Positions 30,872 through 54,619 are shown, counted from the stretch's first letter. The stretch is DNA of 64,000 bases from Candidatus Zhuqueibacterota bacterium (GCA_963169875.1 CAUJEL010000172.1:22460-86459); one strand, 5' to 3'. Program-made: numbers and translations. Notes: generated by a model from the letters alone, not told the origin.

Positions 30872-32842
30872 TTAATAGATTATGGTCATTTTTTTTGTCA
30901 CCACTTTTCCGCCAGCCTGCACGCGGAGCAGATAGATGCCGCTCGCAACTGGCGAACCCGCCTGGTCGTGGCCATCCCAGTAAAAACTGTGCAGCCCCGC
31001 GGTCATGCTCTTGTGTGCCAAGGTCACTATTTCCTGGCCGCGCAGGTTATAGATGCGCAGATTCACCACCATGGGTGCCTGGTAATCCGGAATCTGCACC
31101 ACCAGCTGCGTCGCCGCGTGTTCTTCCGGCCGGAAAGGATTTGGAAAACTTTGCGTCAAATCCAGTTCTCCAGAGCGCAAATCACCTGGCACTGGAGAGC
31201 TGATGATAGCCGCCCGATTTAGCAGCCACTCATCCGGATCAATATTCATCCGCAGTGGCTTTCCCGCCACGGTGAACTCGAAACGATCTTCCTTCGATTG
31301 CAGCCATAGTGTATCGGCGAATAGAGCCGCATCGGTTTCAACCTGCACTTCAAAGGGCATGCGAAAAACTTGTTGCAGTTGCCGCTGGGTGACATTCAGA
31401 GTTATTGTCACCGAATCAGCACTGCTTTGGGCACTATCCCAGGAAATCAGCAAATCAGGCACACCCGCGCCATACAACCACTGCTGAAAAAACCACTGCA
31501 GCGGCTGACCCGATGCTTCCTCAGCCACGCCGATAAAATCCTGACTGCTGGCGTTGCCATAGGCATGCCTTGTTCCATAAGAGGCGAGAATGCGCCAAAA
31601 TACGTCATCCCCGACCATAAAACGAAGCATGTGCAAGATCCAGGCGCCTTTTTCATAGACTGTGGCGCCCCAACCGTACACAGGGTCATAAACCGGAAAG
31701 GCACCCAATCTCCCGGCCTCGATAAAATACTCCGTGGCAAACGAACTCATCACGCGCCGTAAACTGTCGAGGCCGCCCAGACCTTCCTGATAGAGCGCTT
31801 CACTGTAAGTCGCAAATCCCTCGTTGAGCCACAAATCACGCCAATCCGACAGGGTGACCCAGTTTCCCCACCATTGATGCGCCAGTTCATGAGCCACGAT
31901 CGTTTCGAACACCCCGGTTCCTGTCAGCAGCGCCGCGGACATCGACGTCAGCGTCTGATGTTCCATTGCGCCGCGCATGGGCACTTCGATCATGCCATAG
32001 CGATCAAAGGGATAAGCGCCAAACCGCGATTCGAAAAACCGCATCATCTCAGCCGTATTCCGCCAGTCCACCTGGGCTTTATCCACGCTTGCGGGTGAGA
32101 CGATAAACTGAATGGGGATGTTTCTCCCAGAGCGCGAAACATACGAATCCTCCAGCACCTGAAAATGACCAGCAGTGATGGCGATCAGATAGGGCGCTAT
32201 GGGATGCTGCTCACGATAATGAAACGTGGCCGTTTTCGCCCCGCTGTCGCGAACAGTGCGGATCAGCTCGCCATTAGAATAGGCTTGCATGGCTTGTGGT
32301 ACGGTAATATGGATATCCAACGCCGCTTTATCGAACGGCTCGTCATGGCTCGGCACCCAATAGCGCAGCATGGAAGGGGGATCAGAACGAATGCCTTCTC
32401 CCACGGTGTAAACAATTCCATCGCCCCAGAAGAATCCGCCAAAGCCGTCATTTCTGGGATTGCCATGATAGTGAATAATCACCCTAAACAGCGAATCCTG
32501 CTGCAGCGGCTGCAAAGTATGAATGATCAGCTGTTCTTCCATGCGCTGATAAACCAGATCACCGTGATCGCTCCACAAGGAATCCACCGTCAGACCCTGG
32601 AGATGAAGATAAAAAAAATCGGAGGTCTGTTTGCTGCGAATGGACAGGTTGGCTTTGCCGAATATCATTTTTTCTGCAGGATCAAGAAGGAGATGAACTT
32701 CATAATGCAATACGTCAACGGGATTCTCCACATCCACCGCGGACTCTACACCGCGCCGGCTGTTTTCTGTCAGCTCGCCCGGTTTGGATTGTATTAAAAG
32801 CATCACAGCCAGAATAAACAGAATTCGCCACGACCGCTTCAT
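30872..32842 (-). CDS. Secreted M1-family zinc aminopeptidase with a T9SS C-terminal sorting domain
   Basis: It carries the 'HELAHQWWGN' HEXXH motif, the downstream 'NEGFATYSE' motif, the signal peptide MKRSWRILFILAVMLL and the CTD 'LTQSFPNPFRP...GIYLLRVQAG'. Confidence 0.85.
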   Translation of the reverse strand: MKRSWRILFILAVMLLIQSKPGELTENSRRGVESAVDVENPVDVLHYEVHLLLDPAEKMIFGKANLSIRSKQTSDFFYLHLQGLTVDSLWSDHGDLVYQRMEEQLIIHTLQPLQQDSLFRVIIHYHGNPRNDGFGGFFWGDGIVYTVGEGIRSDPPSMLRYWVPSHDEPFDKAALDIHITVPQAMQAYSNGELIRTVRDSGAKTATFHYREQHPIAPYLIAITAGHFQVLEDSYVSRSGRNIPIQFIVSPASVDKAQVDWRNTAEMMRFFESRFGAYPFDRYGMIEVPMRGAMEHQTLTSMSAALLTGTGVFETIVAHELAHQWWGNWVTLSDWRDLWLNEGFATYSEALYQEGLGGLDSLRRVMSSFATEYFIEAGRLGAFPVYDPVYGWGATVYEKGAWILHMLRFMVGDDVFWRILASYGTRHAYGNASSQDFIGVAEEASGQPLQWFFQQWLYGAGVPDLLISWDSAQSSADSVTITLNVTQRQLQQVFRMPFEVQVETDAALFADTLWLQSKEDRFEFTVAGKPLRMNIDPDEWLLNRAAIISSPVPGDLRSGELDLTQSFPNPFRPEEHAATQLVVQIPDYQAPMVVNLRIYNLRGQEIVTLAHKSMTAGLHSFYWDGHDQAGSPVASGIYLLRVQAGGKVVTKKMTIIY

Positions 32843-33051
32843 CCTCTCGGATCCTTCATGAAGAGGAACAACCCGCAACCTGCAGCGAAAATGATCAACC
32901 ACAGAAGCAAAGCAAAGGGACGCAGCATACCAAAGCGGTATGCCTCAAACATCAAGCCCGCCAGGCCGATGGTGGTGTAGATGACGCTGCGAATTCCATA
33001 TCTGCCAGCCTGTTGGTAGCGCGATTTAATCCATGTCAACATCTTCTTCAT
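32839..33051 (-). CDS. Small hypothetical membrane protein (70 aa, 2 TM)
   Basis: Its stop overlaps the M1 peptidase start by 4 nt. It is hydrophobic, and coding status is uncertain. Confidence 0.35.
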   Translation of the reverse strand: MKKMLTWIKSRYQQAGRYGIRSVIYTTIGLAGLMFEAYRFGMLRPFALLLWLIIFAAGCGLFLFMKDPRG

Positions 33052-33713: not shown

Positions 33714-33745
33714 ATAAAAAAAAAGGAAGGTCTCGGGACCTTCCT
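33714..33745 (-). terminator. Rho-independent terminator ending the ECF-sigma operon
   Basis: On the minus strand the sequence reads GGAAGGTCccgagGACCTTCC followed by T9. Confidence 0.75.
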
Positions 33746-33766
33746 TCTGAAGTCAATATCGGATTG

Positions 33767-34090
33767 TTACTTTTTGCTTTCTTCGGCCTTCTGGCAGGCA
33801 GCGGCAGCGGGGCACGACTTTGTACAGGAGCTCTGCTTGCAAGCACTCTTGGGCTGCTCTTGGCTTTTCTCTTTGCACTGCTCTTTGCATTTCTCCTGGC
33901 ACTGTTCTTTACCCAGCTCTTTGCATTTCTCCTGGCACTGCGCTTTATCGTGCTGACACGCCCCCTCTTTCTGCATGGTGCAGTTCGAGGGCTTGGTCTT
34001 TTCATCGGCACGGACGTTGCCATAGAACATGCCGGCGGCAAGCACAAACATGAATACTACAGCGAGGATGAGGGCGATTCTGCGTTTCAT
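33767..34090 (-). CDS. Small secreted Cys-rich repeat protein (107 aa; 13 Cys in a mature chain of about 80 aa)
   Basis: A signal peptide is followed by 'CQHDKAQCQEKCKELGKEQCQEKCKEQCKEKSQEQPKSACKQSSCTKSCPAAAACQ'. An AAGGAG RBS lies 8 nt upstream. The stop is 4 nt downstream of the preceding gene. Confidence 0.65.
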   Translation of the reverse strand: MKRRIALILAVVFMFVLAAGMFYGNVRADEKTKPSNCTMQKEGACQHDKAQCQEKCKELGKEQCQEKCKEQCKEKSQEQPKSACKQSSCTKSCPAAAACQKAEESKK

Positions 34091-34094
34091 AAAG

Positions 34095-34592
34095 TTACTC
34101 CTTTTGGTTTGTACATGGTTCCTGATTTATGCATGTGTTTGAATTCATCGCACACGAGTGAAGGATCAGAGCGAAAAACAGTTGTTGTTGGTTTTTGTTC
34201 AGATAAGTTTTTTGTGCCAATAAATTGTGTACGACCTGGCGCTGCAAATTGGATTGCAAAGAGTCGATTCTCGTCATGACCCTCTCAATGGCGGCGGAAT
34301 CCGTTTCGGGCGCCATCAACAAATTGGTCAGCGCCATCCTTTCGCGTTCCATGTCTGCGGAGGACTGGGCTGCGTCTTGATTGAACTTTAGCCGCAGCGC
34401 GCGCATGGGAGCGATTTGTTCATCCCGCAAACCGAGTTTCTCGACCAGTATTTTTTCCGCCTCAATCTCCTGACGCGGACAAGCTTTTGTTTCACTGTGG
34501 GCGCACCACTGCCGGTAAGCCAGGCGGGAAAAGGCAGCCAGGTTGATAAGCGTGAGCAATCCGACAATAATCAGAAACCATTTTTTCTTCAT
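34095..34592 (-). CDS. Periplasmic LTXXQ-motif protein (Spy/CpxP/ZraP-like chaperone or metal sensor)
   Basis: A signal/TM anchor is followed by a helical domain with LxxxQ-type spacing ('LRDEQIAPMRALRLKF', 'IDSLQSNLQRQ'). It overlaps the anti-sigma gene by 4 nt. Confidence 0.65.
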   Translation of the reverse strand: MKKKWFLIIVGLLTLINLAAFSRLAYRQWCAHSETKACPRQEIEAEKILVEKLGLRDEQIAPMRALRLKFNQDAAQSSADMERERMALTNLLMAPETDSAAIERVMTRIDSLQSNLQRQVVHNLLAQKTYLNKNQQQLFFALILHSCAMNSNTCINQEPCTNQKE

Positions 34593-35053
34593 TGTACACC
34601 CTCTCCGGCTTGCTCATAGAACTGATGCACCGCTTCGACCATGGTAGGGGGCGCAAAAGGTTCGAGCATATCCGTGTAATAGGATGCGCGCAACGATTGC
34701 GATTCTGAAACAGGCAATTCTGAATGGAGCGGAAGATCACCGAGAAAAAAACCGACTGTCAACGCAACAGCAATCAGCAGCGTGGCCATGAGCGGCCGCC
34801 ACTGCAGCTCCCCGTACGGTTTGCTGATCTGCGCCTGGTGACGCAAGCGGACTTGCAGCCGCGTCCACAGGTAGTCCGGCGCCTTCATGGCGGACATCCG
34901 CTCCGGCGCATTCATCAGCCTCTGCAGCTGCTGAACCAGAGTGGCACAGGCCGTGCAATCCTGCAAATGCTCGCTGATTTCGGCCTTTTTGCGCTCATCC
35001 AATTGCCCATCTATATAGAGCAATAGATATTTTTTAATGGTTAGATGTCTCAT
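34589..35053 (-). CDS. Anti-sigma factor with a zinc-binding (ZAS-like) N-terminus and a single TM helix
   Basis: The 'HLQDCTACA' motif (HxxxCxxC) is present and a central TM helix reads 'LMATLLIAVALTVGFFL'. It lies immediately downstream of the ECF sigma gene. Confidence 0.75.
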   Translation of the reverse strand: MRHLTIKKYLLLYIDGQLDERKKAEISEHLQDCTACATLVQQLQRLMNAPERMSAMKAPDYLWTRLQVRLRHQAQISKPYGELQWRPLMATLLIAVALTVGFFLGDLPLHSELPVSESQSLRASYYTDMLEPFAPPTMVEAVHQFYEQAGEGVQ

Positions 35054-35087
35054 ACTGTTCTCTTCTGTAAATTAGACACCACCCTGT

Positions 35088-35681
35088 TCAAAAACTTGTA
35101 TCTTTCAACAGGGGTATCAACTTTTTGCACAATTTTTTTTTAGCCTGGAATATTCTGCTTTCAACCGCGGCGACTGAACATTGCAATATCTCTGCAATCT
35201 CCTGGTAGCTCAAGCCTTCAAAACGGCATAATATCAACGCCGTCCGCTGCGTCTCGGAAAGTGCCTCGATGGCTGTACGCAGGATCTCATCCCGCTCTTT
35301 CCTCTCAACCAGCGCAGCCGGATCTTCGGACAACGATGACGCCTCCTCTTTACCGCCTGCCAGCCAATCCAGAGAAAAAAACTGCGCCCTGCGTTTTTGC
35401 CGGCGGCGATTGAGACAATGGTTGAGGGTCATGCGATAAAGCCAGGAGGAGAGCTTGGCCTCGGCGCGAAATTTGCGGACCTCTGTAAATACTTTACAAA
35501 AAACATCCTGGGTAGCATCCTCGGCCTCGCGCGCATCTTCCAGCAAACGCCAGCACAACCGGTACACCATATCGCTGTACCCGGAAAACAACGACTTGTA
35601 GGCCTGTTCATCGCCATCCTGAAGACGTTTTATCAGTTCCTGTTCCTGCAAAGGCGCCTCAATTTCCATCTTCCTGTTCAT
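35088..35681 (-). CDS. ECF-family RNA polymerase sigma-70 factor
   Basis: It has sigma70 region 2 ('DATQDVFCKVF...') and region 4 ('LSETQRTALILCRFEGLSYQEIAEIL'). Confidence 0.9.
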   Translation of the reverse strand: MNRKMEIEAPLQEQELIKRLQDGDEQAYKSLFSGYSDMVYRLCWRLLEDAREAEDATQDVFCKVFTEVRKFRAEAKLSSWLYRMTLNHCLNRRRQKRRAQFFSLDWLAGGKEEASSLSEDPAALVERKERDEILRTAIEALSETQRTALILCRFEGLSYQEIAEILQCSVAAVESRIFQAKKKLCKKLIPLLKDTSF

Positions 35682-35752
35682 TGATTGGACACCATTTAAG
35701 CGTAAAACTTGTACGAAAAACCTTGGCAGCGGCGCGCATTTTTCTCATGGAC

Positions 35753-36271
35753 TCAGACATTGAGACGGAAAATCCCTTTGAACTCGCCGTCGACCGGAAA
35801 TTTCCGCAAGCCATCCTCGGAGAAAAGTTCTCCGGTAAAATGACCTTCGACCGTTTGATCCGTGATGCGGGTGATTTTCAGGGTTCCCTGTGCCTGAAGC
35901 GCTGCGGTCTCCTTCTCAATGGTCAAGACAAACACATCCATGGGATAAACGCGCCCTTGCCATTTTTTGAAATCACTCTCGAGAAAATCAATGCTGATTA
36001 ATAAACGCGGGTATTTTTGCGATTGAATGTCGTAATTGTAAAACTGCAGATTATCCTTGGAAAAGAGATCTCCTCGCGGTGTGAATTGCGCGACAAAAAA
36101 GGAATCGCGAATCCATTTGCCCTGGAGATGCATCCTCAGAAAACCGCCATTCCCTGCAGCATCCCCCGTTGTTGTCTGTTCCACGGCAGGGTTCTGATCG
36201 GACTCTTCCTGCCTCGAACACCCCATAAAAATCGCCAGAATCATCAGGCTGAGAAAAAATTGTCTTGTCAT
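35753..36271 (-). CDS. Hypothetical lipoprotein
   Basis: A signal peptide carries the lipobox 'IFMGC'. The product is 172 aa with no recognised domain. Confidence 0.5.
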   Translation of the reverse strand: MTRQFFLSLMILAIFMGCSRQEESDQNPAVEQTTTGDAAGNGGFLRMHLQGKWIRDSFFVAQFTPRGDLFSKDNLQFYNYDIQSQKYPRLLISIDFLESDFKKWQGRVYPMDVFVLTIEKETAALQAQGTLKITRITDQTVEGHFTGELFSEDGLRKFPVDGEFKGIFRLNV

Positions 36272-44181: not shown

Positions 44182-45213
44182 TTAAAAATTGGTGTGAAAC
44201 AGGTGCATGATCCAGAAACACCCGGCCGCAACCAGCGCGGAAAATGGAATCGTAATCACCCAGGAAATCACAATCCGGCCGGCCACGCTCCATTTGATCT
44301 GAGAGGCATGGGTGGTCGAGCCCACACCGACGATGGCGCCGGAAATCGTGTGGGTGGTGGACACAGGGATGCCCATATGGGTCGCCATGAAAATGGTGAT
44401 CGCGCCGGCGGTCTCCGCACAAAATCCATGCACCGGCTTGAGCTGCGTCAGCTTCATCCCCATGGTTTTGACAATGCGCCAACCACCGAACGCCGTTCCC
44501 AAGGCCATCGCTGTTTGACAGGAGAGTATAATCCAACTGGTTTTCATATCCAGCAAGGATAGCTGCGTATCTTTATCCAACATGCCGGCTGCCACCAACA
44601 GGGCCACGATGAGTCCCATGGTTTTCTGCGCATCATTGCCGCCGTGCCCCAATGAATAGAGCGCCGCGGAGACCAGCTGTCCCTTGCGAAAAATTTTATC
44701 CACCTCGTAGGGCCGGCGGCGGCGAAAAAGCCAGTATACCGCCACCATGATGACAAATCCCAGCAGCAAACCCAGCAGGGGTGACAACGGAATGAATTGC
44801 ACCGTTGCCCATACTTTTTCCCAGTTAATGATATCAGTTCCTTTATAAGCAATACCTGCTCCGGCAAATCCTCCGATTAGTGCGTGTGAAGAACTGGTGG
44901 GGAGTCCCAACCACCAGGTTATAAGATCCCAGACGATGGCGCCGAGGAGTCCCGCCAGCACGACATAGATAAACGCGGGATCACCCGCCTGGATGTGGAC
45001 GATTTTCGACACCGTATCAGCCACCCGCGGCATAAAAATGAACATGGCGACGAAATTGAAAAAGGCCGCCCAGATGACAGCCACGCGCGGTGAAAGAACC
45101 CGCGTGGAAACCACCGTAGCGATGGAATTGGCGGAGTCGTGAAATCCATTGATGGTATCAAAAACCAGTGCAATAGCCACGGTCAAAACAACCATTATCA
45201 TGGTAGTACTCAT
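44182..45213 (-). CDS. pit: Inorganic phosphate transporter, PiT family
   Basis: The 343-aa product has about 10 TM helices and the PiT signature 'GFHDSANSIAT'. Confidence 0.9.
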   Translation of the reverse strand: MSTTMIMVVLTVAIALVFDTINGFHDSANSIATVVSTRVLSPRVAVIWAAFFNFVAMFIFMPRVADTVSKIVHIQAGDPAFIYVVLAGLLGAIVWDLITWWLGLPTSSSHALIGGFAGAGIAYKGTDIINWEKVWATVQFIPLSPLLGLLLGFVIMVAVYWLFRRRRPYEVDKIFRKGQLVSAALYSLGHGGNDAQKTMGLIVALLVAAGMLDKDTQLSLLDMKTSWIILSCQTAMALGTAFGGWRIVKTMGMKLTQLKPVHGFCAETAGAITIFMATHMGIPVSTTHTISGAIVGVGSTTHASQIKWSVAGRIVISWVITIPFSALVAAGCFWIMHLFHTNF

Positions 45214-45255
45214 ACAGCATTACCCTAATATCAATACCGCATCCGATACATCGCA

Positions 45256-45879
45256 TCAACTGGCGGAGATAACCACACCTTCAATGATGTTGGCCACATC
45301 CTCACAACGGTCCACCGATTTCTCCAGGCGCTCGAATATTTCTTTCCATTTTATGATCATGATCGGATCCGATTCCCGGAACAGACGGAACAACGCCGAT
45401 CGCAAGATGTCATCTCCCTGGTTCTCCAGATCATGAATGATATGACACTGTTCGATGATGATCGCACTGTTCTTCAGATTCCGCAAAGCATGAACTGCCG
45501 TTTTGATGCATTCCGAGGCTTTGACCAGCACTTCTGCCAGTGCTTTCGCCTCGGGACGCATGCCCGTGATGCCATAGAGCGCCATGCGGCTCGCGCCGCC
45601 ATCGATGCAGTCGATGATATCATCCATGCGCTTGATCAGTTGATGAATATCCGGACGGTCAATGGGCGTGATGAACGTGCGATGCAGTGCGTCAATGCAT
45701 TGGTGGGTGAGATCATCCGCCTGATGTTCCAAATCCTTGACGCGTTGAACAGCCCCCGGCAATTCTTTCTCTCCGGAAGTCAAACGCAGCAATTCATGAC
45801 ACGTTTCGAAAATAAGCGCTGCGTGATTTTCGAAAAAGTCAAAAAAAGCGTACTCCTTGGGTAAAATACTCTTGAACAT
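45256..45879 (-). CDS. DUF47-family (PhoU-like) PiT-associated regulator
   Basis: It is a helical protein that starts 'MFKSILPKEYAFFDFFENHA'. The DUF47-Pit pairing is conserved. ATG 45879 has a GAGG RBS. Confidence 0.75.
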   Translation of the reverse strand: MFKSILPKEYAFFDFFENHAALIFETCHELLRLTSGEKELPGAVQRVKDLEHQADDLTHQCIDALHRTFITPIDRPDIHQLIKRMDDIIDCIDGGASRMALYGITGMRPEAKALAEVLVKASECIKTAVHALRNLKNSAIIIEQCHIIHDLENQGDDILRSALFRLFRESDPIMIIKWKEIFERLEKSVDRCEDVANIIEGVVISAS

Positions 45880-45898
45880 AGCGCCTCGCTGATAGTTT

Positions 45899-46621
45899 TT
45901 ATGGGTACTCGATAAGATCCGAAATTTTTTCGCGGACGAGAGCTGTGAGTTCTTCCACACTTTTCGATTTGATTTCATCATAGGGGAGCGGTGCACCCAC
46001 TTTCAGGAGGATGGGGCCGGGGCGGACGATCCAACTCACGCGCGATTTGAAGCGGAACAATCCGCTCGTCCCGATGGGAACGATATCCACCCCCGCCATT
46101 TGCGCCAGCCGGAACGGCAGCTTTTTGAAAGGCCCCAGCGCACCGGTGCGCGTGCGCGTCCCCTCGGGCATGATGATGATGGATTTGCCAGCCCGGATAT
46201 CTTCTGCCGCGCGCTCCAGACTCGCCCAGGAGGCATGGGCACTGGCGCGTTCGATGGGGATATTGCCGATGCTGCGAATGAACCAGCCGATGAGCGGCCA
46301 CTTGAACTGCTCGGCAGCCTCCACGCCGCGGGCGAAAAAGGGCAGATAGCCGCCGACGAGCGGGACATCGAACAGACTCACATGATTGGGCATGAAGAGA
46401 TAGGTCTTGCTGCGATCGAGCCGCTCCAACCCTTCAACGCGGACGTGGCCGCCATAGAGCCGGACCAAAAAACGCAACAGCGCGCGGCCCAAATCGTTAT
46501 AAATACGAGGCGGAAACAAGAGCCCCAAAAGCGTAATGAATAAAAGGACTGGAATGGTGATGATCAACCCATAGGTCCAGATTATGACCGCAAGAATGAT
46601 CTCTGATATACGTTTCATCAT
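45899..46621 (-). CDS. plsC: 1-acyl-sn-glycerol-3-phosphate acyltransferase family (PlsC-like)
   Basis: It carries the 'NHVSLFD' H(X)4D motif and the 'MPEGTRT' motif, with an N-terminal TM helix. Confidence 0.8.
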   Translation of the reverse strand: MMKRISEIILAVIIWTYGLIITIPVLLFITLLGLLFPPRIYNDLGRALLRFLVRLYGGHVRVEGLERLDRSKTYLFMPNHVSLFDVPLVGGYLPFFARGVEAAEQFKWPLIGWFIRSIGNIPIERASAHASWASLERAAEDIRAGKSIIIMPEGTRTRTGALGPFKKLPFRLAQMAGVDIVPIGTSGLFRFKSRVSWIVRPGPILLKVGAPLPYDEIKSKSVEELTALVREKISDLIEYP

Positions 46622-47886
46622 GAGCGCGTTAACCCCGTCTTGTCTGTGCGCTGCTGCCGGTAATTGCGCGCCAATTCCATGAAAATCTCCACATCGCTCT
46701 CAAAGTTGCTTTGCAAACCATCAAAATAGAGAACCCGCAGCGGAAATTGCCCCAAATCCTCGCTCACCCGCGGATAGACCGATTCGCAGACAATGCCATT
46801 CATGCAGGTGAAGGGGCTGATATCGATAACACCATCGGCGCCCTTGCGCTGATACCAGATGGCTTTGCCCACGGATATGACCATCTCGCCATGGGCGCCC
46901 TCCCGCGGCAAATAAGGCCTGCTGAGATCGAGCACCTGCGTGATATGCTTTGGCTCGGGATAATCAAAAAAATCTTCGCGGAAAAGGGCCAGCATGGCGG
47001 CTTCATCGGCATGCATCACTTTTTGCCGGATTTTCGCTATCATCATGCTTCCGGAAAAGCGCTTGCCCTGCCGGATCAGACGTTTTTCCTCTTCATCGTT
47101 GGTATACCACACCCATTCGGAGACATCGGACATCCACGCTTCACCGCCGTACTTTTCGATCAAGCGGATGAGGTAACTATTGGAGTAATCATTCAAACGG
47201 CAAAAAATTTCTCCGACGATGCCAATGAGGAGTTTTGGCTTTCTGCGATCCATTTCGACGGTCCTGAAGGCATCGCGCGCGGCAGTGAGAGCGCGCAGGA
47301 TCTCTCCCATGCGTTTTTTGTGAGAAATAGCGGGCAACGCCAGGGCTTCGCAGACGCGATTCAACGACGCCTGAAAAATGCGATCGCTCAATCCCTTTTC
47401 TTTTTCATAAGGCCGTGTCTTCAGCAGCATCTTGCGCATGATGTCCGAAACGATCACCGCCCGCCAACCTGTGCGCACCAATTCCCGGGCGCCCTTGCCG
47501 ATGTCCTGGTACCCATTTGAACTGGTCGGTGACAGAATGAGGACCTCGTCCTCGCCGCGATCCGCAAATATTTTACGCGCCAGCGGCAGATAATGACCAA
47601 AGCGGCACGGGCCATTGGAGGTCGGCAGCAAAAAAGCGGTCCTGGCCGGATCATAATCCGGCATCTCGGTCACCTTGAGAAAACTCCCCAGCGTGATTGC
47701 TTCAGGCAGGCACTCATCACCGCTGAGATATTTCCGGGCCAGATCATCACTGTGCGCGTCGCTGTCCGGAGATGGATAAGCCTCGATGCCGATGGACCGG
47801 AACGCAGCCGCCATGCACAGCGCGCCTTCGTAAGACATCTGCGGGATATAGAGCCTGCGGCCCTGCAATGTTTTTGTCCGCTTCAT
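46618..47886 (-). CDS. 2-hydroxyacyl-CoA dehydratase / benzoyl-CoA reductase-family subunit-like protein (HgdB/BcrC-like, DUF2229-type)
   Basis: The 422-aa product resembles the HAD/BCR family, with conserved Cys residues including 'SNGPCRFGHY'. It overlaps plsC by 4 nt and lies 5 nt from the upstream activase-fusion gene. Confidence 0.55.
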   Translation of the reverse strand: MKRTKTLQGRRLYIPQMSYEGALCMAAAFRSIGIEAYPSPDSDAHSDDLARKYLSGDECLPEAITLGSFLKVTEMPDYDPARTAFLLPTSNGPCRFGHYLPLARKIFADRGEDEVLILSPTSSNGYQDIGKGARELVRTGWRAVIVSDIMRKMLLKTRPYEKEKGLSDRIFQASLNRVCEALALPAISHKKRMGEILRALTAARDAFRTVEMDRRKPKLLIGIVGEIFCRLNDYSNSYLIRLIEKYGGEAWMSDVSEWVWYTNDEEEKRLIRQGKRFSGSMMIAKIRQKVMHADEAAMLALFREDFFDYPEPKHITQVLDLSRPYLPREGAHGEMVISVGKAIWYQRKGADGVIDISPFTCMNGIVCESVYPRVSEDLGQFPLRVLYFDGLQSNFESDVEIFMELARNYRQQRTDKTGLTRS

Positions 47887-47890
47887 CCCG

Positions 47891-50800
47891 TTACCTCATC
47901 TCACTTAAGACAGAGGTCAGCCGTGAAGCATGCTGCAACAGACCCTTGCTCTGCAGATAGGCTTCACAACGCGTCATGATACCCGCATCATTGCCGTGCT
48001 CATCGAATTGCAGGGTGAGAAATGGCGCGCCCAGGGCCTGTCGCATGAAATGTTTGATGTAGGAATCAGGCCCGCATTTGAAATTGGTGAAGTAAATCAC
48101 ATGCAAATTTTTATTCCGGCTGATGAAAGTAGCGGCCTGGAGGATGCGGCGTCCATAATTCCAGAACATATTCTCATGCACGGGCTGCACATCGATGCCC
48201 TCATAGGAAAGAAAATCCATGGGAATGACATCGATGCCATAGTGGGTACGCAATTTGCCGGGAACGTTCAAATTCAGTCCCGGATCAAAAACATTATAAG
48301 GCCGGCCAATGAGCACCACAGCTCTCCCTTTGCCTTGCTCCAGTTGGGACAAGGTGGATTGTCCCGCGGCCTTGATGGAGCTCCAGAACTGCGCCTGCAC
48401 GGCATAGGCCATCTCCACGGCGCGGCGATTGCGCTCTGCGCGGATGCCCAGCATTTTCGCCATGGGAGCTAATGCCTGAATCACTGCTTCCTGACCATCA
48501 CGAAATCGCACCACCGGTGAAAGTATTTTCTCCTGCCACGTTAAATGGTAAAAACTATTTTTCAAAACCAGCGGCAGCGTCTGCCCCCAGGGACAATACC
48601 ACGATTCGGTCTGCGGCGAATCGGTTTCCGCATTGATGGCGTTGGGCATAAAAACATAGTCCACCTCCTTTTGCAGCAGATCGACCACATGTCCGTGCGC
48701 GGCCATGATGGGAAAGCAGGGTTCCGCGATGGTGTGCTCGCGCCCCCAGGCGATAATCTGTCGATTGGTGGGTTCGGAGAGTATCAATTCAGCGCCCAAT
48801 TCAGCGAAATAAGCGCGCCAGAACGGAAAACGGTCAAAGAAATACATGGCGCGGGGGATGCCTATTTTCACACCCAACCCATCCGGTCCGGGCACATCGC
48901 GCACCAGCTGTTCCTGATACAGGGTGACCAGATCAGGCGCTGTCGCCCGCTGTCCGGTCCTGGCTTTCTGGCGGTAACGCTCGGAGCACTTGTCGCCCCA
49001 ATAGGTCTTTTGACCGTTGACAATGACTTCCTGCATATCACACTGGTTGGAACAGGCCTTGCAGGTGAACTGGCGCACGGTGAACTGCACGGCATTCAGG
49101 TCAAAACCATGGAATCGGCTGAGGGCGCTACTCTGCTGCATTTTCAGTTTTGCCAACAGCGCTGCGCCGATGGCGCCCATGACGCCGCAGTGCGGTGGAA
49201 CAATGATGGATTTTCCCAGGGTTGCGGTGAACGCCGCGGCCACCGCTTTATTATAAGCCGTTCCCCCCTGAAAAAAAATCACATCGCCGATCTTGCGGCC
49301 GCGAACCACACGATTCAAATAGTTCTGCACCACAGCGAAGGCCAGACCGGCGGCGATATCTTTTTTCGCCATGCCCTGCTGCAGGAACGCGGAAACATCC
49401 TTCTCCATAAATACCGTGCAGCGCTCACCCATGGCCAGCGGCGCAGCGGATTGCATGGCCAGATTCGCAAATTCGTCAATGATCGATATCCCCAGTTTGT
49501 TGGCCTGCTCTTCCAGGAATGATCCGGTGCCGGCTGCGCAGGCCTCATTCATGGTGAAATCAACCACCACCCCGTCCTCAATGGAGATGAATTTGGAATC
49601 CTGGCCGCCAATTTCAAATATCGTATCAACCGAAGCCCCGCCCAACTGATCCGCAATAAAAGCCGCGCCGGTCTTGTGCGCCGTGATCTCATCGTTGACG
49701 GTATCTGCGCCCACCAGCTCCCCGATCATCTCTCTTCCGGATCCAGTCGTGCCCACACCCAGGACTTCGATTCGGTGCGCCCATTTCTCCTGCCAGCCGC
49801 GCAGTTCGCGGTCGACCACCTCGACCGGTTTGCCTTCGGTCCGGGTGTAAATTTCATCAATGAGCATACCCTGGGCATCCAGTAAAACAAGATTGGTGCT
49901 GACCGAGCCCACATCAATGCCAAGATATACACCGATGCGGTCGTTCCCGGAAGTGGTTTCACAAAACTGATGCAGCTTTTCCGGAAAACGCACGCGGGAG
50001 AGTTCCAGTCGCTGTGAACGCCTCTTATCCGTCAGGCCGGCGCTGTCCAGATGGTCAAACTGATCGATATGTTCTTGAGTTAACAGGGCCCCATCTTTCA
50101 GCGAGGCACACCCCAGCGCGGTTGCAAAAGCGTGCAGGACCGGAACGATCAATTCACCCGGCCCAAAACCGAGCACATCGGCCATTGCATCCACAACCCC
50201 TTGATTGGCGGCGACGCCACCCACAAATACGGCCGGTCGCGTCAACGTCTTGCCCCGCAGTACTGTGCCTTTATAATTTCGCACCACGGCTTCACAAAGA
50301 CCCTTGAGAATGGCGCCCGGCGAATAGCCGCGCTGCTGAGCATGCACCATATCCGATTTGGCGAACACGGAACAACGGCCTGCGATATTGGCGGCTTTTC
50401 CGGCTTTGCTCACCAGGGCGCCGATATCCGCCACTTCGAGGCGCATGCGGGCGACTTGCTGATCGATGAATGAACCGGTGCCGGCGGCGCAATCTCCGTT
50501 GCGCGCGTAATCGATGATGTCCAGATGACCGGTCTCCGCATGAAACGTGATCTGCAAGTAACGCGAACCATCTCCGCCGATCTCCAGGATGGTTCGGGCT
50601 TCAGGGACCAGCTCGGCAACCCCTCTGGCCAACGCCTTGAATTCATTGACGTGGGGAAGACCCATGGATTGAGCGATGTATTTTGCATTGCTGCCGGTGA
50701 AGAGCAAGCGAAGATGAACCCGGCTGCCAGCCTGATTTTTCAGCTCTTGAAGGAGCCGGCGACAGAGTGGCAGCGGCTCGCCCAATACAGGCAAATGACA

Positions 50801-50956
50801 CCCATACCATGCGCCGCCGCTGGTGGCTTGCAACCGCATGAAAGGAGCCTGCAACATCACAGGAATATCTTCCGTCGTTGACGGCACAAACATCACCATC
50901 TTGGCGGCCACGGAACCGATATCAAAGCCTGCACGGATTTCAGGTATAGAAGACAA
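47891..50956 (-). CDS. Acyl-CoA dehydratase activase-type fusion: two BadF/BadG/BcrA/BcrD-type ATPase domains plus a C-terminal HAD/BCR-like (DUF2229) domain
   Basis: Two actin-fold ATPase modules start at 'GFDIGSVAAKMV' and 'GIDVGSVSTNLVLLD'. Each is followed by a 'CAAGTGSF' segment, which is a plausible [4Fe-4S] helix-cluster-helix Cys pair. The C-terminal roughly 400 aa are HgdB-like. The product is 1021 aa. Confidence 0.75.
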   Translation of the reverse strand: MSSIPEIRAGFDIGSVAAKMVMFVPSTTEDIPVMLQAPFMRLQATSGGAWYGCHLPVLGEPLPLCRRLLQELKNQAGSRVHLRLLFTGSNAKYIAQSMGLPHVNEFKALARGVAELVPEARTILEIGGDGSRYLQITFHAETGHLDIIDYARNGDCAAGTGSFIDQQVARMRLEVADIGALVSKAGKAANIAGRCSVFAKSDMVHAQQRGYSPGAILKGLCEAVVRNYKGTVLRGKTLTRPAVFVGGVAANQGVVDAMADVLGFGPGELIVPVLHAFATALGCASLKDGALLTQEHIDQFDHLDSAGLTDKRRSQRLELSRVRFPEKLHQFCETTSGNDRIGVYLGIDVGSVSTNLVLLDAQGMLIDEIYTRTEGKPVEVVDRELRGWQEKWAHRIEVLGVGTTGSGREMIGELVGADTVNDEITAHKTGAAFIADQLGGASVDTIFEIGGQDSKFISIEDGVVVDFTMNEACAAGTGSFLEEQANKLGISIIDEFANLAMQSAAPLAMGERCTVFMEKDVSAFLQQGMAKKDIAAGLAFAVVQNYLNRVVRGRKIGDVIFFQGGTAYNKAVAAAFTATLGKSIIVPPHCGVMGAIGAALLAKLKMQQSSALSRFHGFDLNAVQFTVRQFTCKACSNQCDMQEVIVNGQKTYWGDKCSERYRQKARTGQRATAPDLVTLYQEQLVRDVPGPDGLGVKIGIPRAMYFFDRFPFWRAYFAELGAELILSEPTNRQIIAWGREHTIAEPCFPIMAAHGHVVDLLQKEVDYVFMPNAINAETDSPQTESWYCPWGQTLPLVLKNSFYHLTWQEKILSPVVRFRDGQEAVIQALAPMAKMLGIRAERNRRAVEMAYAVQAQFWSSIKAAGQSTLSQLEQGKGRAVVLIGRPYNVFDPGLNLNVPGKLRTHYGIDVIPMDFLSYEGIDVQPVHENMFWNYGRRILQAATFISRNKNLHVIYFTNFKCGPDSYIKHFMRQALGAPFLTLQFDEHGNDAGIMTRCEAYLQSKGLLQHASRLTSVLSEMR

Positions 50957-51289
50957 TTTCGTTTCTCGTCATTTGAGAATAATTTAGCAGTTCATTGGTT
51001 TTGTTTTGTGCAAAAGGGCCAAGAAATGCCGGTCAGCTTTGAGGCATCCGGCATGCTGCTCCGGTTTAACCAGGTTGGGGAAATATAATATACAAAAGCT
51101 GTTCGAATCTTTCAAGCGGAAATATCGGGCTGGGAAAGAGGATAAATCCTTGCAAATAGGAGTTCACTCTAAAAAACCACTAAATTCGCTAATTACACCA
51201 ACGGCAACGATCCTAAATTGACATAAAACAATTCATGCAAATTCGTTTAATTCGTGGTTGAGGCTTTTTAGAATAGACTCAATTTTGAA

Positions 51290-52063
51290 TCAACCGAACC
51301 GGCCTTCAATGTAATCCGCGGTGCGGCTGTCCGCCGGATTGATGAACAGATCTTCGGTCCGGCTGTGTTCAACCAGTTCCCCCATCAGCATGAACAGACA
51401 TTCATGACTGACGCGGCGCGCCTGGGCCATATTGTGCGTAACAATGACTATGGTATATCGGCCCGCCAGCTCCAGCATCAACTCCTCGATCTGACGCGTC
51501 GCCTCCACGTCCAACGCAGAACACGGCTCATCCATGAGGATGATTTCCGGTTTGAGCGGCAGTAGACGGGCGATGCATAATTTCTGCTGCTGCTCGAGCT
51601 GCAGATCAGTCGCTTTGCGCTTGAGCCGGTCCTTGAGATCATCCCACAACCCGACATCCGTGAGCGCCTCTTCAACCGCTTCATCCAGACGGGCGCGCGT
51701 CAGCTCTTTCGCTGGCGTATGCAGACGCAGACCAAACACCACGTTCTCGTAAACCGAGATGGGGAGCGGATTAGGCCGTTGAAAGACCATGCCCACGCTT
51801 TTGCGCAGCTCGATCAATTCCACATCCGGGTCATAGATATTCTTGCCCAAAATGCGGATCTCACCGCTGGTCTTGACATTCCCATAGCGTTCGTTCACGC
51901 GGTTGAAACAGCGCAACAGCGTCGTCTTGCCGCAGCCGGAAGGGCCGATTAACGATGTGATCAATCCATGACCGATATCCACCGAGACGTTATACAACGC
52001 CTGAAATTCGCCATACCACAGGCTGAGGGCGCGGGTCTCTATGCTGTGCTTGTTCTCGTTCAT
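51290..52063 (-). CDS. pstB: Phosphate ABC transporter ATP-binding protein PstB (canonical copy)
   Basis: The motifs are 'GPSGCGKTT', 'LSGGQQQKL' (wait-free match to signature), 'LMDEPCSALD' and H-loop 'VTHNMAQA'. The C-terminus ends 'YIEGRFG'. Confidence 0.9.
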   Translation of the reverse strand: MNENKHSIETRALSLWYGEFQALYNVSVDIGHGLITSLIGPSGCGKTTLLRCFNRVNERYGNVKTSGEIRILGKNIYDPDVELIELRKSVGMVFQRPNPLPISVYENVVFGLRLHTPAKELTRARLDEAVEEALTDVGLWDDLKDRLKRKATDLQLEQQQKLCIARLLPLKPEIILMDEPCSALDVEATRQIEELMLELAGRYTIVIVTHNMAQARRVSHECLFMLMGELVEHSRTEDLFINPADSRTADYIEGRFG

Positions 52064-52824
52064 CCGAAAATGCCATTGACGTATTCATAGGTTTTGTGTT
52101 GTGCGGGGTGATCGGAAAAGATCACGTCTGAATGATCCAGTTCGACGATCTCGCCGTTGAAAAGAAACATGGTGCGGTTGGCCAGCCGCCGTGCCTGCTG
52201 TACGAGATTGGTGACCAGAATGATGGTCATGTGCTGGCTCAAATCCTTCAAAACTTCTTCAATGCGCATCGTGGTCACAGGATCAATGGCGATGGAAAAT
52301 TCATCCAGACATAGTATTTCCGGCTGATGGGACAGTGCGCGCGCGATGGTGAGACGCTGCTGCTGTCCGCCCGAAAGACGGGTGCCGAGCGTATTCAGGC
52401 GGTCCTTGACCTCATCCCAGAGGGCGGCCTGACGCAGGCACTGCTCCACACGGTGATCGAGCTCGTCCCGGGTGCGGATGCCTGCCATGCGCGGGGCAAA
52501 AGCCACATTATCATAGATGGTCAGAGGCAATCCCACCGGCAAAGGCGCCACCATGCCGATCTTGCGGCGCAAGGCGTAGACATTGTGGAGATGGCGAATG
52601 TCGTCCCCATCAACTTTCACGATGCCGCGATAACGGGCATCCGCCGTGAATTCGAGCGTGCGGTTGAGTACGCTCAAAAGCGTCGATTTGCCGGATTGCG
52701 CCGGACCGATAATCGCGAACACATCATTTTCGTAAATATCAAAGGAGATGCCTTTTAGCGCCGCTTTGTGTCCATACGTGACCCGCAGATCCTGCACGGA
52801 TATTTTACTTTTTCCGGCTACCAT
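52060..52824 (-). CDS. PstB-like ABC ATPase with degenerate Walker B, D-loop and H-loop
   Basis: The motifs are 'GPAQSGKST', 'LSGGQQQRL', 'LCLDEFSIAID' (canonical is LLLDEPTSALD) and 'ILVTNLVQQA' (no H-loop His). The C-terminus ends 'YVNGIFG'. It overlaps the downstream pstB by 4 nt. Confidence 0.85.
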   Translation of the reverse strand: MVAGKSKISVQDLRVTYGHKAALKGISFDIYENDVFAIIGPAQSGKSTLLSVLNRTLEFTADARYRGIVKVDGDDIRHLHNVYALRRKIGMVAPLPVGLPLTIYDNVAFAPRMAGIRTRDELDHRVEQCLRQAALWDEVKDRLNTLGTRLSGGQQQRLTIARALSHQPEILCLDEFSIAIDPVTTMRIEEVLKDLSQHMTIILVTNLVQQARRLANRTMFLFNGEIVELDHSDVIFSDHPAQHKTYEYVNGIFG

Positions 52825-53702
52825 TTCTTTCGCGACCTGATTTTAAACCGTAAAACGATGGCCAGGGCATTTACCAGCAGCACCACGCCCAGGAGCACCA
52901 CAGCCGTTCCGTAAGGAAGCGCCACCGGCACATCCGGCACCTGGGTGGATATGGTAAAAAGGTGCATGGAGAGCGCCATGCATTGATCGAGGAGGCCGTA
53001 GGCCAACAGATCACCCTCTTGAATGGCTTTATAAAACACCGCGCCGGTGAACATGATGGGCGCCGTCTCCCCGGCGGCGCGCGAAACCTGCAGGATGACA
53101 CCGGTGAGAATGCCGCTGATCGAATTGGGCAGAACAACCTCGCGGATCGTCTGCCAGCGCGTCGCGCCCACATTCCAGCACGCCTGCCGGAAAGCGACGG
53201 GAACCGCGGCGAGCGCCTCCTTGGTGCTGGCGATGATGACCGGCAGGGTCATGATGGCCAGCGTGAGTGAAGCGGCCAGAATCGAGCGGCCGATGCCCGC
53301 GAACAGCACAAACGCGCCCAGACCGAACAAGGCATGGACGATGCTGGGAACGCCGGCGAGATTGACAACGGCCAGATTGATCACGCGCGTCAGCCAGCTC
53401 TCCCGGGCGTATTCATTGAGATAAACCGCGGCGAACACACCGATGGGGGTGGCGATGAGCAAGGAAATCAAGACCAGATAGATGGTGCCGAGCAGCGGCG
53501 CCCAGATGCCGCCGTCGCGCATGCCGCGAATGGGATTTTTGAGGAGAAAATCCACTGAGAGAATCGGCGACGCCTGATAAATCAGATAAAAAATGATCAG
53601 GATCAGCGGCAGAATGATCAACAGCGTCATGGTCATGAGCAGGTATTTCGCGATCAGCTCCTGACGTTTTTTCCGCTGTGTGTTTTTAGTGCTGGTGAAC
53701 AT
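52818..53702 (-). CDS. pstA: Phosphate ABC transporter permease PstA
   Basis: It has 6 TM helices and the EAA-like 'SRAAGETAPIMF' loop. Confidence 0.9.
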   Translation of the reverse strand: MFTSTKNTQRKKRQELIAKYLLMTMTLLIILPLILIIFYLIYQASPILSVDFLLKNPIRGMRDGGIWAPLLGTIYLVLISLLIATPIGVFAAVYLNEYARESWLTRVINLAVVNLAGVPSIVHALFGLGAFVLFAGIGRSILAASLTLAIMTLPVIIASTKEALAAVPVAFRQACWNVGATRWQTIREVVLPNSISGILTGVILQVSRAAGETAPIMFTGAVFYKAIQEGDLLAYGLLDQCMALSMHLFTISTQVPDVPVALPYGTAVVLLGVVLLVNALAIVLRFKIRSRKKW

Positions 53703-53716
53703 GCTCTGTCTTGAGT

Positions 53717-54619
53717 TTATTTTCTGCGTATGCCGCGCACCACCAGGTCCGCGGTCAGATTAACGACAAACGTGATGCTGAACAGCAAAATACCGATGAT
53801 GAATAGAACCTGATAATGGTCCGAATGCACCGGCGCTTCTCCCAGCTCTGCGGCGATGGTTGCCGTCAGCGTCCGCACCGGTTCGAGAACGCCGCCGGGA
53901 ATGCGAATGGAGTGGCCGGTGGCCATGAGAACAGCCATGGTCTCCCCAACCGCGCGACCGACCCCCAGCAACACCGCGGCCAGCAAGCCATTCCGGGCCG
54001 CGGGAACAAGCACGCGGAAGATCATTTGCCAGCGTGTGCATCCCAACGCCAGCGACGCTTCGCGATAAGAGTCGGGCACAGCCTTGAGCGCATCCTCGCC
54101 GATGGAGACGATGATGGGCACACTCATGAGTGCGAGAATGATGCCGCCATTTAACACATTCAAACCGATGGGCGCACTGAACAGATTAAGAATGAGCGAA
54201 TTCATGATGGTCAAACCGATGAATCCCCAAACAACCGAGGGAATGGCCGCGAGCAGCTCGATGATCACTTTCAAGCTCTCGCGCAACCGCGGCGGGCAGA
54301 ATTCAGAGATGAAGACAGCCGCCCCCAGACCGAACGGGACTGCGATGAACATCGCCAGCAGGGTGACACTGAACGTGCCGGTGATGAGCGCCAGGGCGCC
54401 ATAACGCACCTGGGTGCGGGAGGTGGGATACCACTCGATGCTGGTGAAAAATTCCGTGACTTTGAATCCGCGCAACAAATAGTCCGCGCCTTCGCGGAAC
54501 ACAAAGAAAAAGATGCCGAACACAAAAAAGATGGCGCTGATGCCGCAAATCCAGATCAGTTTTTCGATCATCCATTCCTTGAGCAGCTCTTTGCTGTTGA
54601 CGAGTTCGCGCAGCCTCAC
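53717..54619 (-). CDS. pstC: Phosphate ABC transporter permease PstC
   Basis: It has 6 TM helices and the 'GVGRAVGETMAVLMATG' EAA loop. Confidence 0.9.
   Translation of the reverse strand: MRLRELVNSKELLKEWMIEKLIWICGISAIFFVFGIFFFVFREGADYLLRGFKVTEFFTSIEWYPTSRTQVRYGALALITGTFSVTLLAMFIAVPFGLGAAVFISEFCPPRLRESLKVIIELLAAIPSVVWGFIGLTIMNSLILNLFSAPIGLNVLNGGIILALMSVPIIVSIGEDALKAVPDSYREASLALGCTRWQMIFRVLVPAARNGLLAAVLLGVGRAVGETMAVLMATGHSIRIPGGVLEPVRTLTATIAAELGEAPVHSDHYQVLFIIGILLFSITFVVNLTADLVVRGIRRK

Follow-up and report, generated by a model that had tools for sequence, protein, structure and literature searches.

A conserved four-gene module in a Candidatus Zhuqueibacterota bacterium that joins an ECF sigma factor and its putative anti-sigma factor to a sensor-like Metal_resist protein and a secreted cysteine-repeat protein

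The locus described here lies in a 64,000-nucleotide stretch of DNA from a Candidatus Zhuqueibacterota bacterium (GCA_963169875.1, CAUJEL010000172.1:22460-86459), referred to below in its entirety as the window. Four open reading frames (ORFs) run head to tail on its minus strand, from position 35681 to 33767, and encode in turn a sigma factor of the extracytoplasmic function (ECF) family (35088-35681, a 197-aa ORF), a single-pass anti-sigma factor of the zinc-binding anti-sigma (ZAS) type (34589-35053, 154 aa), an apparently membrane-anchored, sensor- or chaperone-like protein of the PF13801 Metal_resist family (34095-34592, 165 aa) and a secreted CxxxC-repeat protein rich in Cys, Lys, Glu and Gln (33767-34090, 107 aa, 11 of them Cys). 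Downstream on the same strand is an intrinsic-terminator-like hairpin (33721-33748) with a 12-bp stem, a 4-nt loop and a run of nine T residues; it begins 18 nt past the final stop codon and is the sole such site between 33000 and 36600, so that no terminator separates the sigma genes from the Cys-rich gene. A similar hairpin follows the fourth gene at a distant related locus, L033 (related loci carry L numbers throughout). The preliminary description of this DNA had placed four co-directional genes at these coordinates and closed them with a terminator, and the ORF map and the single hairpin after the last stop bear out both points. It had also given the junctions as two 4-nt overlaps and one 4-nt gap, with translational coupling along the whole operon. 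What the sequence actually has is one ATGA overlap, between the anti-sigma stop and the PF13801 start, one 4-nt gap, between the PF13801 and Cys-rich genes, and one 34-nt gap, between the sigma stop and the anti-sigma start, where no start codon that would give an overlap is available; the sigma/anti-sigma junction is not translationally coupled. The four genes almost certainly form a genuine, conserved unit.

The first two products are what they had been taken for. The sigma factor matches Sigma70_r2 (PF04542, E=2e-15) and r4_2 (PF08281, E=8e-21) and scores 105.5 bits against TIGR02937, where the cutoff is 42.9; these matches place it in the ECF (group 4) branch of the sigma-70 family. Its closest relatives of solved structure are AlgU, RpoE and SigW (E 3e-30 to 1e-22), and CnrH is matched at only E 1.5e-9. 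Because the -10 element of the promoter-like motif P1, discussed below, finishes just 3 nt ahead of ATG 35681, the true start of the sigma gene is probably further in, at ATG 35669 or at TTG 35651; the latter is preceded by GAGG and, as the codon of L11, aligns with the starts called in the orthologues at L008 and L013. The anti-sigma factor matches zf-HC2 (E=3.8e-7, 30.5 bits, cutoff 22.2), and in an alignment of 10 orthologues its zinc motif of the HxxxCxxC form, H29-x3-C33-x2-C36, is invariant, with position 3 always H or C. One transmembrane (TM) helix, at about residues 88-108, follows the cytoplasmic zinc-finger domain and leads into a periplasmic tail of ~45 aa that is free of Cys and contains a conserved D.FEP.PP.S motif. 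RsiW is the closest solved structure (E=3.6e-7). By these signatures the protein is of the ZAS (class I) type, with zinc binding and sigma binding both predicted, and the pair reads as one of the RpoE/AlgU/SigW-RsiW type, not of the CnrH-CnrY type.

The third protein matches PF13801 Metal_resist at E=5e-12 and 46.5 bits (cutoff 29.2). A profile built from six orthologues finds ZraP (3LAY) at E=3e-5, with an alignment that passes through the LTXXQ region, and the orthologues P0011, P0013 and P0016 also match the LTXXQ family, PF07813. The window protein has two LTXXQ-like motifs, LRDEQ (55-59) and LNKNQ (131-135), in which the L and Q are kept but not the T; LTAEQ, LTPQQ and LTQQQ are found among the orthologues. 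An AlphaFold2 (AF2) model made from 16 sequences has a mean predicted local distance difference test score (pLDDT) of 79.5, and the top 16 PDB structures that Foldseek finds with it are all ZraP, CnrX, CpxP, STV or Spy; these same proteins, together with NccX, which appears at rank 33, account for nearly all of the top ~45 matches. The TM-scores, normalised to the target, are 0.55-0.79 (0.70-0.79 for ZraP, CnrX and the best Spy chains), with weak E-values of 0.014-0.3. The assignment to the Spy/CpxP/ZraP-like LTXXQ proteins, on which the earlier reading of the locus depended, thus holds by family score, by profile match to ZraP and by fold, the long-helix 'hooked hairpin' typical of the superfamily. 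The hydrophobic helix at the N-terminus (residues 1-17, 34542-34592) is unusually conserved, with Asn17 invariant among the 16 sequences; this conservation suggests an uncleaved membrane anchor like that of CnrX and NccX, and Asn17 perhaps makes a polar helix-helix contact, for which the TM helix of the anti-sigma factor is a candidate partner. The flanks of the helical domain bear Cys residues (C30, C38, C147, C154 and C161), and Q59, L88, D98, I102, D110-S-L-Q113, Q117, R118, V121 and Q135 are invariant. No conserved His or Met matching the CnrX metal site is present in the periplasmic domain of the aligned orthologues. When the sensor-like protein was compared with 72,556 plasmids by tblastn, no match was found. 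On the short metagenome contig L017, the gene called ahead of the Cys-rich gene (273-587) has a normal sensor C-terminus behind sequence that looks out of frame, probably an assembly or frameshift artefact.

The fourth protein is the secreted, Cys-rich 107-aa product that had been described. It starts with MKRR, a hydrophobic stretch and VRA, followed by DEK, which together look like a signal peptide with predicted cleavage after VRA28, and its 11 Cys are set amid Lys, Glu, Gln and Ala and include CQEKC...CQEKCKEQCKEK. Its C-x3-C-x3 ladder is encoded by a tandem DNA repeat at 33854-33947, which Tandem Repeats Finder resolves either as 7.8 copies of a 12-nt unit or as 2.2 copies of a 36-nt unit with 88% match. 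No sequence match was found for it in Pfam, NCBIfam or the PDB, and a PDB sequence-profile search with the Cys-rich family likewise found nothing. Searched exhaustively with phmmer, 1.84 billion cluster representatives yielded just six relatives, at 35-59% identity, which have in common the signal peptide and a C-terminal SCPAxxAC motif; word-indexed homologue searches with this protein and with the PF13801 protein had returned a single near-identical sequence each, and the relatives discussed here came from the exhaustive search and from profile and pattern scans. Comparison of the gene with its 95%-identical orthologue gives 9 synonymous and 6 non-synonymous differences, a ratio of non-synonymous to synonymous change (pN/pS) of 0.15, and none of the 11 Cys is lost; for the other three genes, compared with the orthologous locus, the ratio is 0.20-0.25. 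By this measure all four genes are under purifying selection (pN/pS 0.15-0.25), and because the low ratio comes with retention of every Cys, the Cys-rich ORF is judged to be a real gene rather than a chance one.

All four genes are found on one contig at 14 related loci and six more loci are partial; one contig ends inside the sensor gene. The gene after the sensor encodes a signal-peptide Cys protein, with 8-20 Cys, in 14/14 of the full loci and in the six partial ones, and there is no counter-example. The preliminary description would have regarded the fourth ORF as spurious if relatives lacked it or had it frame-shifted, and had left it as a question whether the gene in this position is always Cys-rich; it is present, intact and Cys-rich in every related locus examined. 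The contigs that carry the six phmmer relatives have the order sigma, zf-HC2, Metal_resist, Cys-rich wherever they are long enough, pattern scans derived from sensor alignments added more distant sensors with 30-40% identity, and a third homologue search extended the set to sensors with 26%. These relatives come from candidate division KSB1, UBA2214, 'Calditrichaeota' and metagenome-assembled genomes (MAGs) labelled Chlorobiaceae or Bacteroidetes, and they fall into three clades. The sensor gene and the Cys-rich gene are always adjacent, with gaps of -4 to 24 nt. A phmmer search with the Cys-rich protein of the window misses the fourth-position proteins of the distant-sensor loci, and what this protein appears to conserve between clades is its composition and Cys periodicity, not its sequence. 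In the close clade the synteny takes in pyruvate kinase, phosphotransferase system (PTS) EIIA, an M20 peptidase encoded on the other strand, a 172-aa protein that only some loci have, the module itself and a SpoU methylase.

The composition is best seen in the 18 fourth-position proteins taken together. Their mature parts are 11-15% Cys and about 20% Lys, with 0-7 Ile/Leu/Val and essentially no aromatic residues. Cys residues are spaced 4 apart 70 times, where shuffled sequences give a mean of 17, and 7-9 apart 65 times (shuffle mean 29), while spacings of 1-3 occur only 12 times (shuffle mean 68). With peaks at 4 and at 7-9, the Cys would line one face of an α-helix; metallothioneins, with their CxC/CC/CxxC motifs, show the reverse pattern. 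When the 18 proteins were scanned against Pfam and NCBIfam, only sub-threshold noise resulted, and matches to BamI, DedD, CzcI and CopL, all with E above 1e-3, were dismissed as compositional. The number of repeats changes quickly: L021 and L029 have sensors that are 97% identical and Cys proteins that are 98% identical over the first 90 residues, yet these contain 14 and 20 Cys respectively. Such fast change in repeat number is what is expected of a stoichiometric binder. Among the Cys-repeat proteins that were compared (L021 2277-2705, L029 3471-3983, L027 1202-1708, L028 640-1089 and L020 4512-4970), the one at L028 has an L021-type N-terminal half joined to L020-type ECKHDSxECKDKMAKG repeats, a mosaic that suggests exchange of repeat cassettes.

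Alignment of the regions upstream of the sigma genes produced a bipartite motif, AAGTTTT-N11-GTGTCTAAT, which has two matches in the 64-kb window at <=3 mismatches, where 0.29 would be expected by chance. Both are on the minus strand and both are in the module. P1 (AAGTTTTACGCTTAAATGGTGTCCAAT, 35684-35710) lies upstream of the sigma gene and has one mismatch; P2 (AAGTTTTTGAACAGGGTGGTGTCTAAT, 35071-35097) is an exact copy of the consensus that overlaps with the stop codon of the sigma gene and occupies the 34-nt gap before the anti-sigma gene. P1 is found at the same position in L001, L008, L013, L020-22, L029, L023 and L032-34, and P2 in every locus, in all three clades, that contains the sigma/anti-sigma junction, which makes the internal copy the one conserved more universally. 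The motif persists in three clades, between which protein identity is only 26-40%. Counting either position, it was seen in L001, L008, L011, L013, L014, L020-23, L027, L029, L030 and L032-35; no further copies that might mark additional members of a regulon are present in the 64-kb window. Read as AAGTT-N16-TCTAA, the motif appears to resemble the RpoE/AlgU-type ECF promoters, in agreement with the closest relatives of the sigma factor. Since there are two conserved copies of one bipartite motif, we infer that this sigma recognises both P1 and P2, and the last three genes probably have P2 as a sigma-dependent promoter of their own. This bears on the earlier suggestion that the fourth gene might be uncoupled from the sigma genes by a promoter and terminator of its own, a condition that, like the other two set out there, does not refute the finding: no terminator intervenes, and the internal promoter-like motif stands in the sigma/anti-sigma gap. 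Just upstream of the sigma gene in the window is a 172-aa lipoprotein-like ORF (35753-36271, minus strand, MTRQFFLSLMILAIFMGC...) with no Pfam match, which is syntenic in L001, L008 and L014; at L014 its stop codon overlaps the sigma start, and P1 was not found there. It was considered as a core part of the module and rejected, being absent from L011, L013 and clades B and C.

The first three genes have a published counterpart. The main text of the ECF classification of Casas-Pastor (2021, NAR; PMC7826278) describes for group ECF281 a zinc-finger anti-sigma factor at +1 and, at +2, a PF13801 protein designated 'heavy-metal resistance'; the group was derived from the old CnrH-containing group ECF20 and is predicted to deal with heavy-metal stress. 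The present module shares with it the order and domain content of its first three genes, the match being one of gene context: the gene at +1, 34 nt after the sigma stop, scores 30.5 bits against zf-HC2 (cutoff 22.2), and the gene at +2 scores 46.5 bits against PF13801 (cutoff 29.2). It differs in having two copies of the promoter motif and in having, always, a secreted CxxxC-repeat protein at +3, where the main text of PMC7826278 gives no conserved gene. A literature search for ECF281 beyond the classification paper found nothing, nor did one for 'periplasmic metallothionein'. The novelty put forward earlier, when no described operon with this exact four-part composition was known to the preliminary description, needs to be narrowed, since the sigma, ZAS and PF13801 trio has already been catalogued in silico, though not studied, while the fourth gene and the duplicated promoter appear to be unrecorded. 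Among PF13801-at-+2 ECF systems, this one appears to carry its output within its own operon, as a type of protein that has no annotation, although its position and composition are strictly conserved in lineages with only ~26-40% identity between the neighbouring proteins.

CnrYXH had been offered as the parallel for this layout, and the parallel is good in outline only. In CnrYXH the sensor, which has the same fold, is anchored in the membrane, and there are two promoters that depend on the sigma factor (PMC6851896). The nickel-cobalt sensing systems CnrYXH and NccYXH of Cupriavidus metallidurans share with the module the combination of an ECF sigma factor, a membrane anti-sigma factor and a separate anchored periplasmic sensor with the same CnrX/ZraP-type helical fold, as well as the two promoters, which here are predicted from the copies of the motif. 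The differences are in nearly every component: the anti-sigma factor is class I ZAS and RsiW-like, while CnrY is a short class II protein; the sigma factor is nearer to AlgU and RpoE (E about 1e-30), and to SigW, than to CnrH (1.5e-9); the CnrX ligands His42, His46, Glu63, His119 and Met123 have no conserved counterparts in the sensor-like protein, which has Cys instead; the gene order is not the same; and the output is a small secreted Cys-rich protein instead of the resistance-nodulation-division (RND) efflux pump of Cnr and Ncc. Homology of the whole module to CnrYXH was rejected, as sigma type, anti-sigma class, ligand residues and regulon all fail to agree.

Enterobacterial ZraP, CpxP and Spy resemble the third protein at the level of the Pfam family, with ZraP the best solved match (E=3e-5) and with two LTXXQ-like motifs, of which the window protein keeps L and Q but not T, but the protein described here retains its conserved N-terminal membrane helix, has Cys-rich flanks, and is partnered by an ECF sigma/anti-sigma pair in place of a two-component system. 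The fourth protein can be compared with the copper storage (Csp) proteins and the metallothioneins. In the Csp proteins Cys residues are arranged along helices so that their thiolates line the core of a four-helix bundle, and Csp1 is exported. Csp1, Csp3 and the metallothioneins share with the fourth protein a high Cys content, and the Csp proteins also share helix-face Cys; it matches neither the DUF326/Csp nor the metallothionein Pfam families, however. Unlike Csp, it has no hydrophobic residues with which to form a bundle, and it gives no confident model; unlike the metallothioneins, it is depleted in CxC/CC/CxxC spacings (12 observed, 68 expected).

The genes around the module offer a hint of the signal in one of the three clades. 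An arsenic-type cluster (L032 1-2785, L035 1-2771, L034 1-2778 and L033 323-2774) stands directly upstream of the module in clade C (L032-L035), and both are on the same strand. The cluster includes a DsbD_TM (CcdA-like) protein, a thioredoxin-type ArsC whose top match, TIGR02691 at 135 bits, is below the equivalog cutoff, two thioredoxin-like proteins of the MTH895/ArsE family that score above cutoff, and an ACR3 arsenite efflux pump (TIGR00832, 455 bits against a cutoff of 283); the last was called in L032 and L035 only, and no acr3 gene was called in L033 or L034. This context is a lead, not proof, that points to arsenite, to other thiophilic species or to the redox state of periplasmic thiols. 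In the window itself, no efflux genes were found within about 6 kb of the module.

Taken as a whole, the module is read here as a self-regulated envelope-signalling operon that couples a sensor to a periplasmic thiolate sponge, and we would give this reading about an even chance of being right in all its parts. It starts from what can be seen at the locus: which proteins the four genes encode, the order of the genes and their tight junctions, the terminator, the degree of conservation and the two copies of the motif. Family knowledge suggests that the ECF sigma factor would be held at the membrane by the class I zinc-finger anti-sigma factor. The latter is without a periplasmic sensor domain of its own, having just its conserved tail of ~45 aa, and by analogy with CnrX and NccX the anchored PF13801 protein would act as the periplasmic sensor. 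It may detect a thiophilic metal or metalloid, with Cu(I), Zn/Cd, Hg and As(III)/Sb(III) as candidates, or else a thiol-reactive insult, and it would transmit the signal to the tail or TM helix of the anti-sigma factor, either by an allosteric route like that of CnrYX or by making the anti-sigma factor accessible to regulated proteolysis, as happens with RsiW and RseA. The freed sigma factor would then fire P1, giving the whole operon, and P2, giving extra anti-sigma factor, sensor and Cys-rich protein. The fourth protein would be the dedicated output, exported by the Sec pathway with its signal peptide presumably removed; thiolates on its helix face would bind the stressor stoichiometrically in the periplasm, the binding would lower the signal and so close a negative feedback loop, and the binding capacity could be tuned by gain or loss of CxxxC repeat units. 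The protein may thus be a metal or redox buffer, and its most likely role is to sequester, outside the cytoplasm, metals or metalloids that favour thiols.

Several things weigh against this picture. In a periplasm that is oxidising, the Cys would end up in disulfides rather than serve as metal ligands. AF2 gives the Cys-rich protein no confident fold (pLDDT 47.7). The positions of the sensor Cys differ between clades, so that these residues may not make one defined site. P1 was not found at <=3 mismatches in L011, L014 or L035, and the motif as a whole is assigned to this sigma factor only by its position and by its apparent resemblance to RpoE/AlgU-type promoters. The arsenic neighbourhood is seen in 1/3 of the clades, and the neighbours of the module in the window itself are housekeeping genes. 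The ECF281-type systems, finally, are themselves only catalogued in silico.

If the thiolate sponge does exist, it would be a new bacterial route to buffering soft metals or arsenic outside the cytoplasm, a natural case of metal-templated folding of a helix that has no hydrophobic core, and, with its defined promoter motif, a compact cassette of four genes that unites sensor and binder and could serve in biosensing or bioremediation. A bolder version of the proposal is that the fourth gene founds a hitherto unrecognised class of Sec-exported, core-less, polyampholytic (Lys/Glu) periplasmic proteins that bind metals or metalloids and have a helix with a continuous stripe of Cys at i, i+4 and i+7/8, which fold only around chains or clusters of thiophilic ions such as Cu(I), Cd, Hg, As(III) or Sb(III) and are made by a dedicated ECF/ZAS/CnrX-like thiolate sensor circuit with two autoregulated promoters. 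This is distinctly more tentative, and we would sooner expect it to fail than to hold; if true, no earlier envelope 'metallothionein' system would have been connected to a sensor of its own, and this first one would be in uncultivated bacteria of the KSB1/Calditrichota type. Being small and self-contained, the module lends itself to a direct test of the hypothesis in a heterologous host.

Two other accounts of the fourth protein deserve weight, though each is rather unlikely. One possibility is that it is a regulatory partner rather than an output: a largely disordered protein, rich in Lys, that serves the Spy/CpxP-like PF13801 protein as client or titrant and whose metal-loaded or oxidised state would determine if the sensor can act on the anti-sigma factor, much as misfolded proteins titrate CpxP away from CpxA. 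The fold of the PF13801 protein is as much that of the Spy/CpxP chaperones as that of CnrX, the fourth protein lacks both a hydrophobic core and a confident fold, and the constant adjacency of the two genes (gaps of -4 to 24 nt) would suit such a partnership. A specific partner should keep its sequence, however, and only composition and Cys periodicity are shared between clades, with six phmmer relatives in all; moreover, the repeat number differs between strains whose sensors are 97% identical.

The other account, with a similarly low probability, replaces metal by thiol or redox stress in the envelope, brought about by oxidants, electrophiles or polysulfide and other sulfane sulfur, and makes the Cys-rich protein a sacrificial or carrier pool of thiols that is recycled by a reducing pathway in the periplasm. 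The abundance of Cys in both periplasmic proteins is consistent with this, as is the presence in clade C of a DsbD_TM electron transporter and thioredoxin-family genes just upstream; the relatives are MAGs of uncultivated KSB1 and Calditrichaeota, for which an anaerobic sediment or digester habitat can be read from the sample types alone. Yet the characterised members of the sensor's family bind metals or unfolded proteins, the thioredoxin-like genes in question are of the ArsE type and stand alongside arsC and acr3, and the Cys ladders with their interspersed His, Asp and Glu (ECKHDSxECKDK at L020) look like sets of ligands and not like redox pairs.

A third account, quite improbable, is that the fourth gene encodes the precursor of a ribosomally synthesised and post-translationally modified peptide (RiPP), either bufferin-like or a CXXX-repeat target of a radical S-adenosylmethionine (SAM) enzyme, with its maturase encoded elsewhere in the genome. 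The bufferins BufA1 and BufA2, of Caulobacter and many other bacteria, are Sec-exported, copper-chelating periplasmic RiPPs under the control of an ECF sigma/anti-sigma pair, and they depend on an MNIO enzyme and its DUF2063 partner, encoded next to them, which convert Cys to thiooxazoles (PMC11626156). The fourth protein is, like them, small, Sec-exported, Cys-bearing and ECF-linked, though a signal peptide and many Cys are not in themselves specific, and 3/18 of the fourth-position proteins, including that at L032 4523-4894, weakly match TIGR04117 (best E=4.8e-5). TIGR04117, 'Cys-Xaa-Xaa-Xaa repeat radical SAM target protein', is also defined only in silico, by CxxxC repeats. The matches to it are at about 21 bits (the one printed score is 21.4), where the cutoff is 50; for the window protein there is no match. 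At none of the loci with precomputed Pfam annotation do the surrounding ~6 kb contain an MNIO (DUF692), DUF2063 or radical-SAM gene, no bufferin family model, including DUF2282 and BUF_6/12Cys, was matched, and composition and CxxxC periodicity also differ from those of the bufferins. The last alternative is an operon of only three genes, with a Cys-rich ORF that is no more than a spurious frame of low complexity. It might appeal to the repeat-containing sequence of the ORF, its lack of a database family and the long overlapping ORFs on the opposite strand, but it is effectively refuted by the pN/pS of 0.15 with all Cys kept, by the intact signal-peptide ORF that all 20 related loci have at this position and in this frame, even where sensor identity falls to 26%, and by the terminator, which comes after this ORF and not after the sensor gene.

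Elsewhere in the window, Rfam and tRNA scans of the 64 kb gave no match. The region 44182-55602 contains a PHO4 phosphate transporter with its PhoU_div partner, a BadF/BcrA-type activase and a phosphate-type ATP-binding cassette (ABC) transporter made up of PBP_like_2, two permeases and two ATPases, none of them metal-related. Two candidates for metal efflux were rejected here: the 1021-aa ORF at 47891-50956, which is the BadF/BcrA-type CoA-enzyme activase, and the ABC genes, which belong to the phosphate-type transporter. At 30872-33051, on the minus strand, a 70-aa two-helix membrane ORF (32839-33051) lies ahead of an M1 aminopeptidase of 656-676 aa that has a C-terminal FlgD_ig-type domain and an end resembling a secretion sorting domain; the two genes are syntenic in close relatives, and in the orthologues they overlap by 4 nt.

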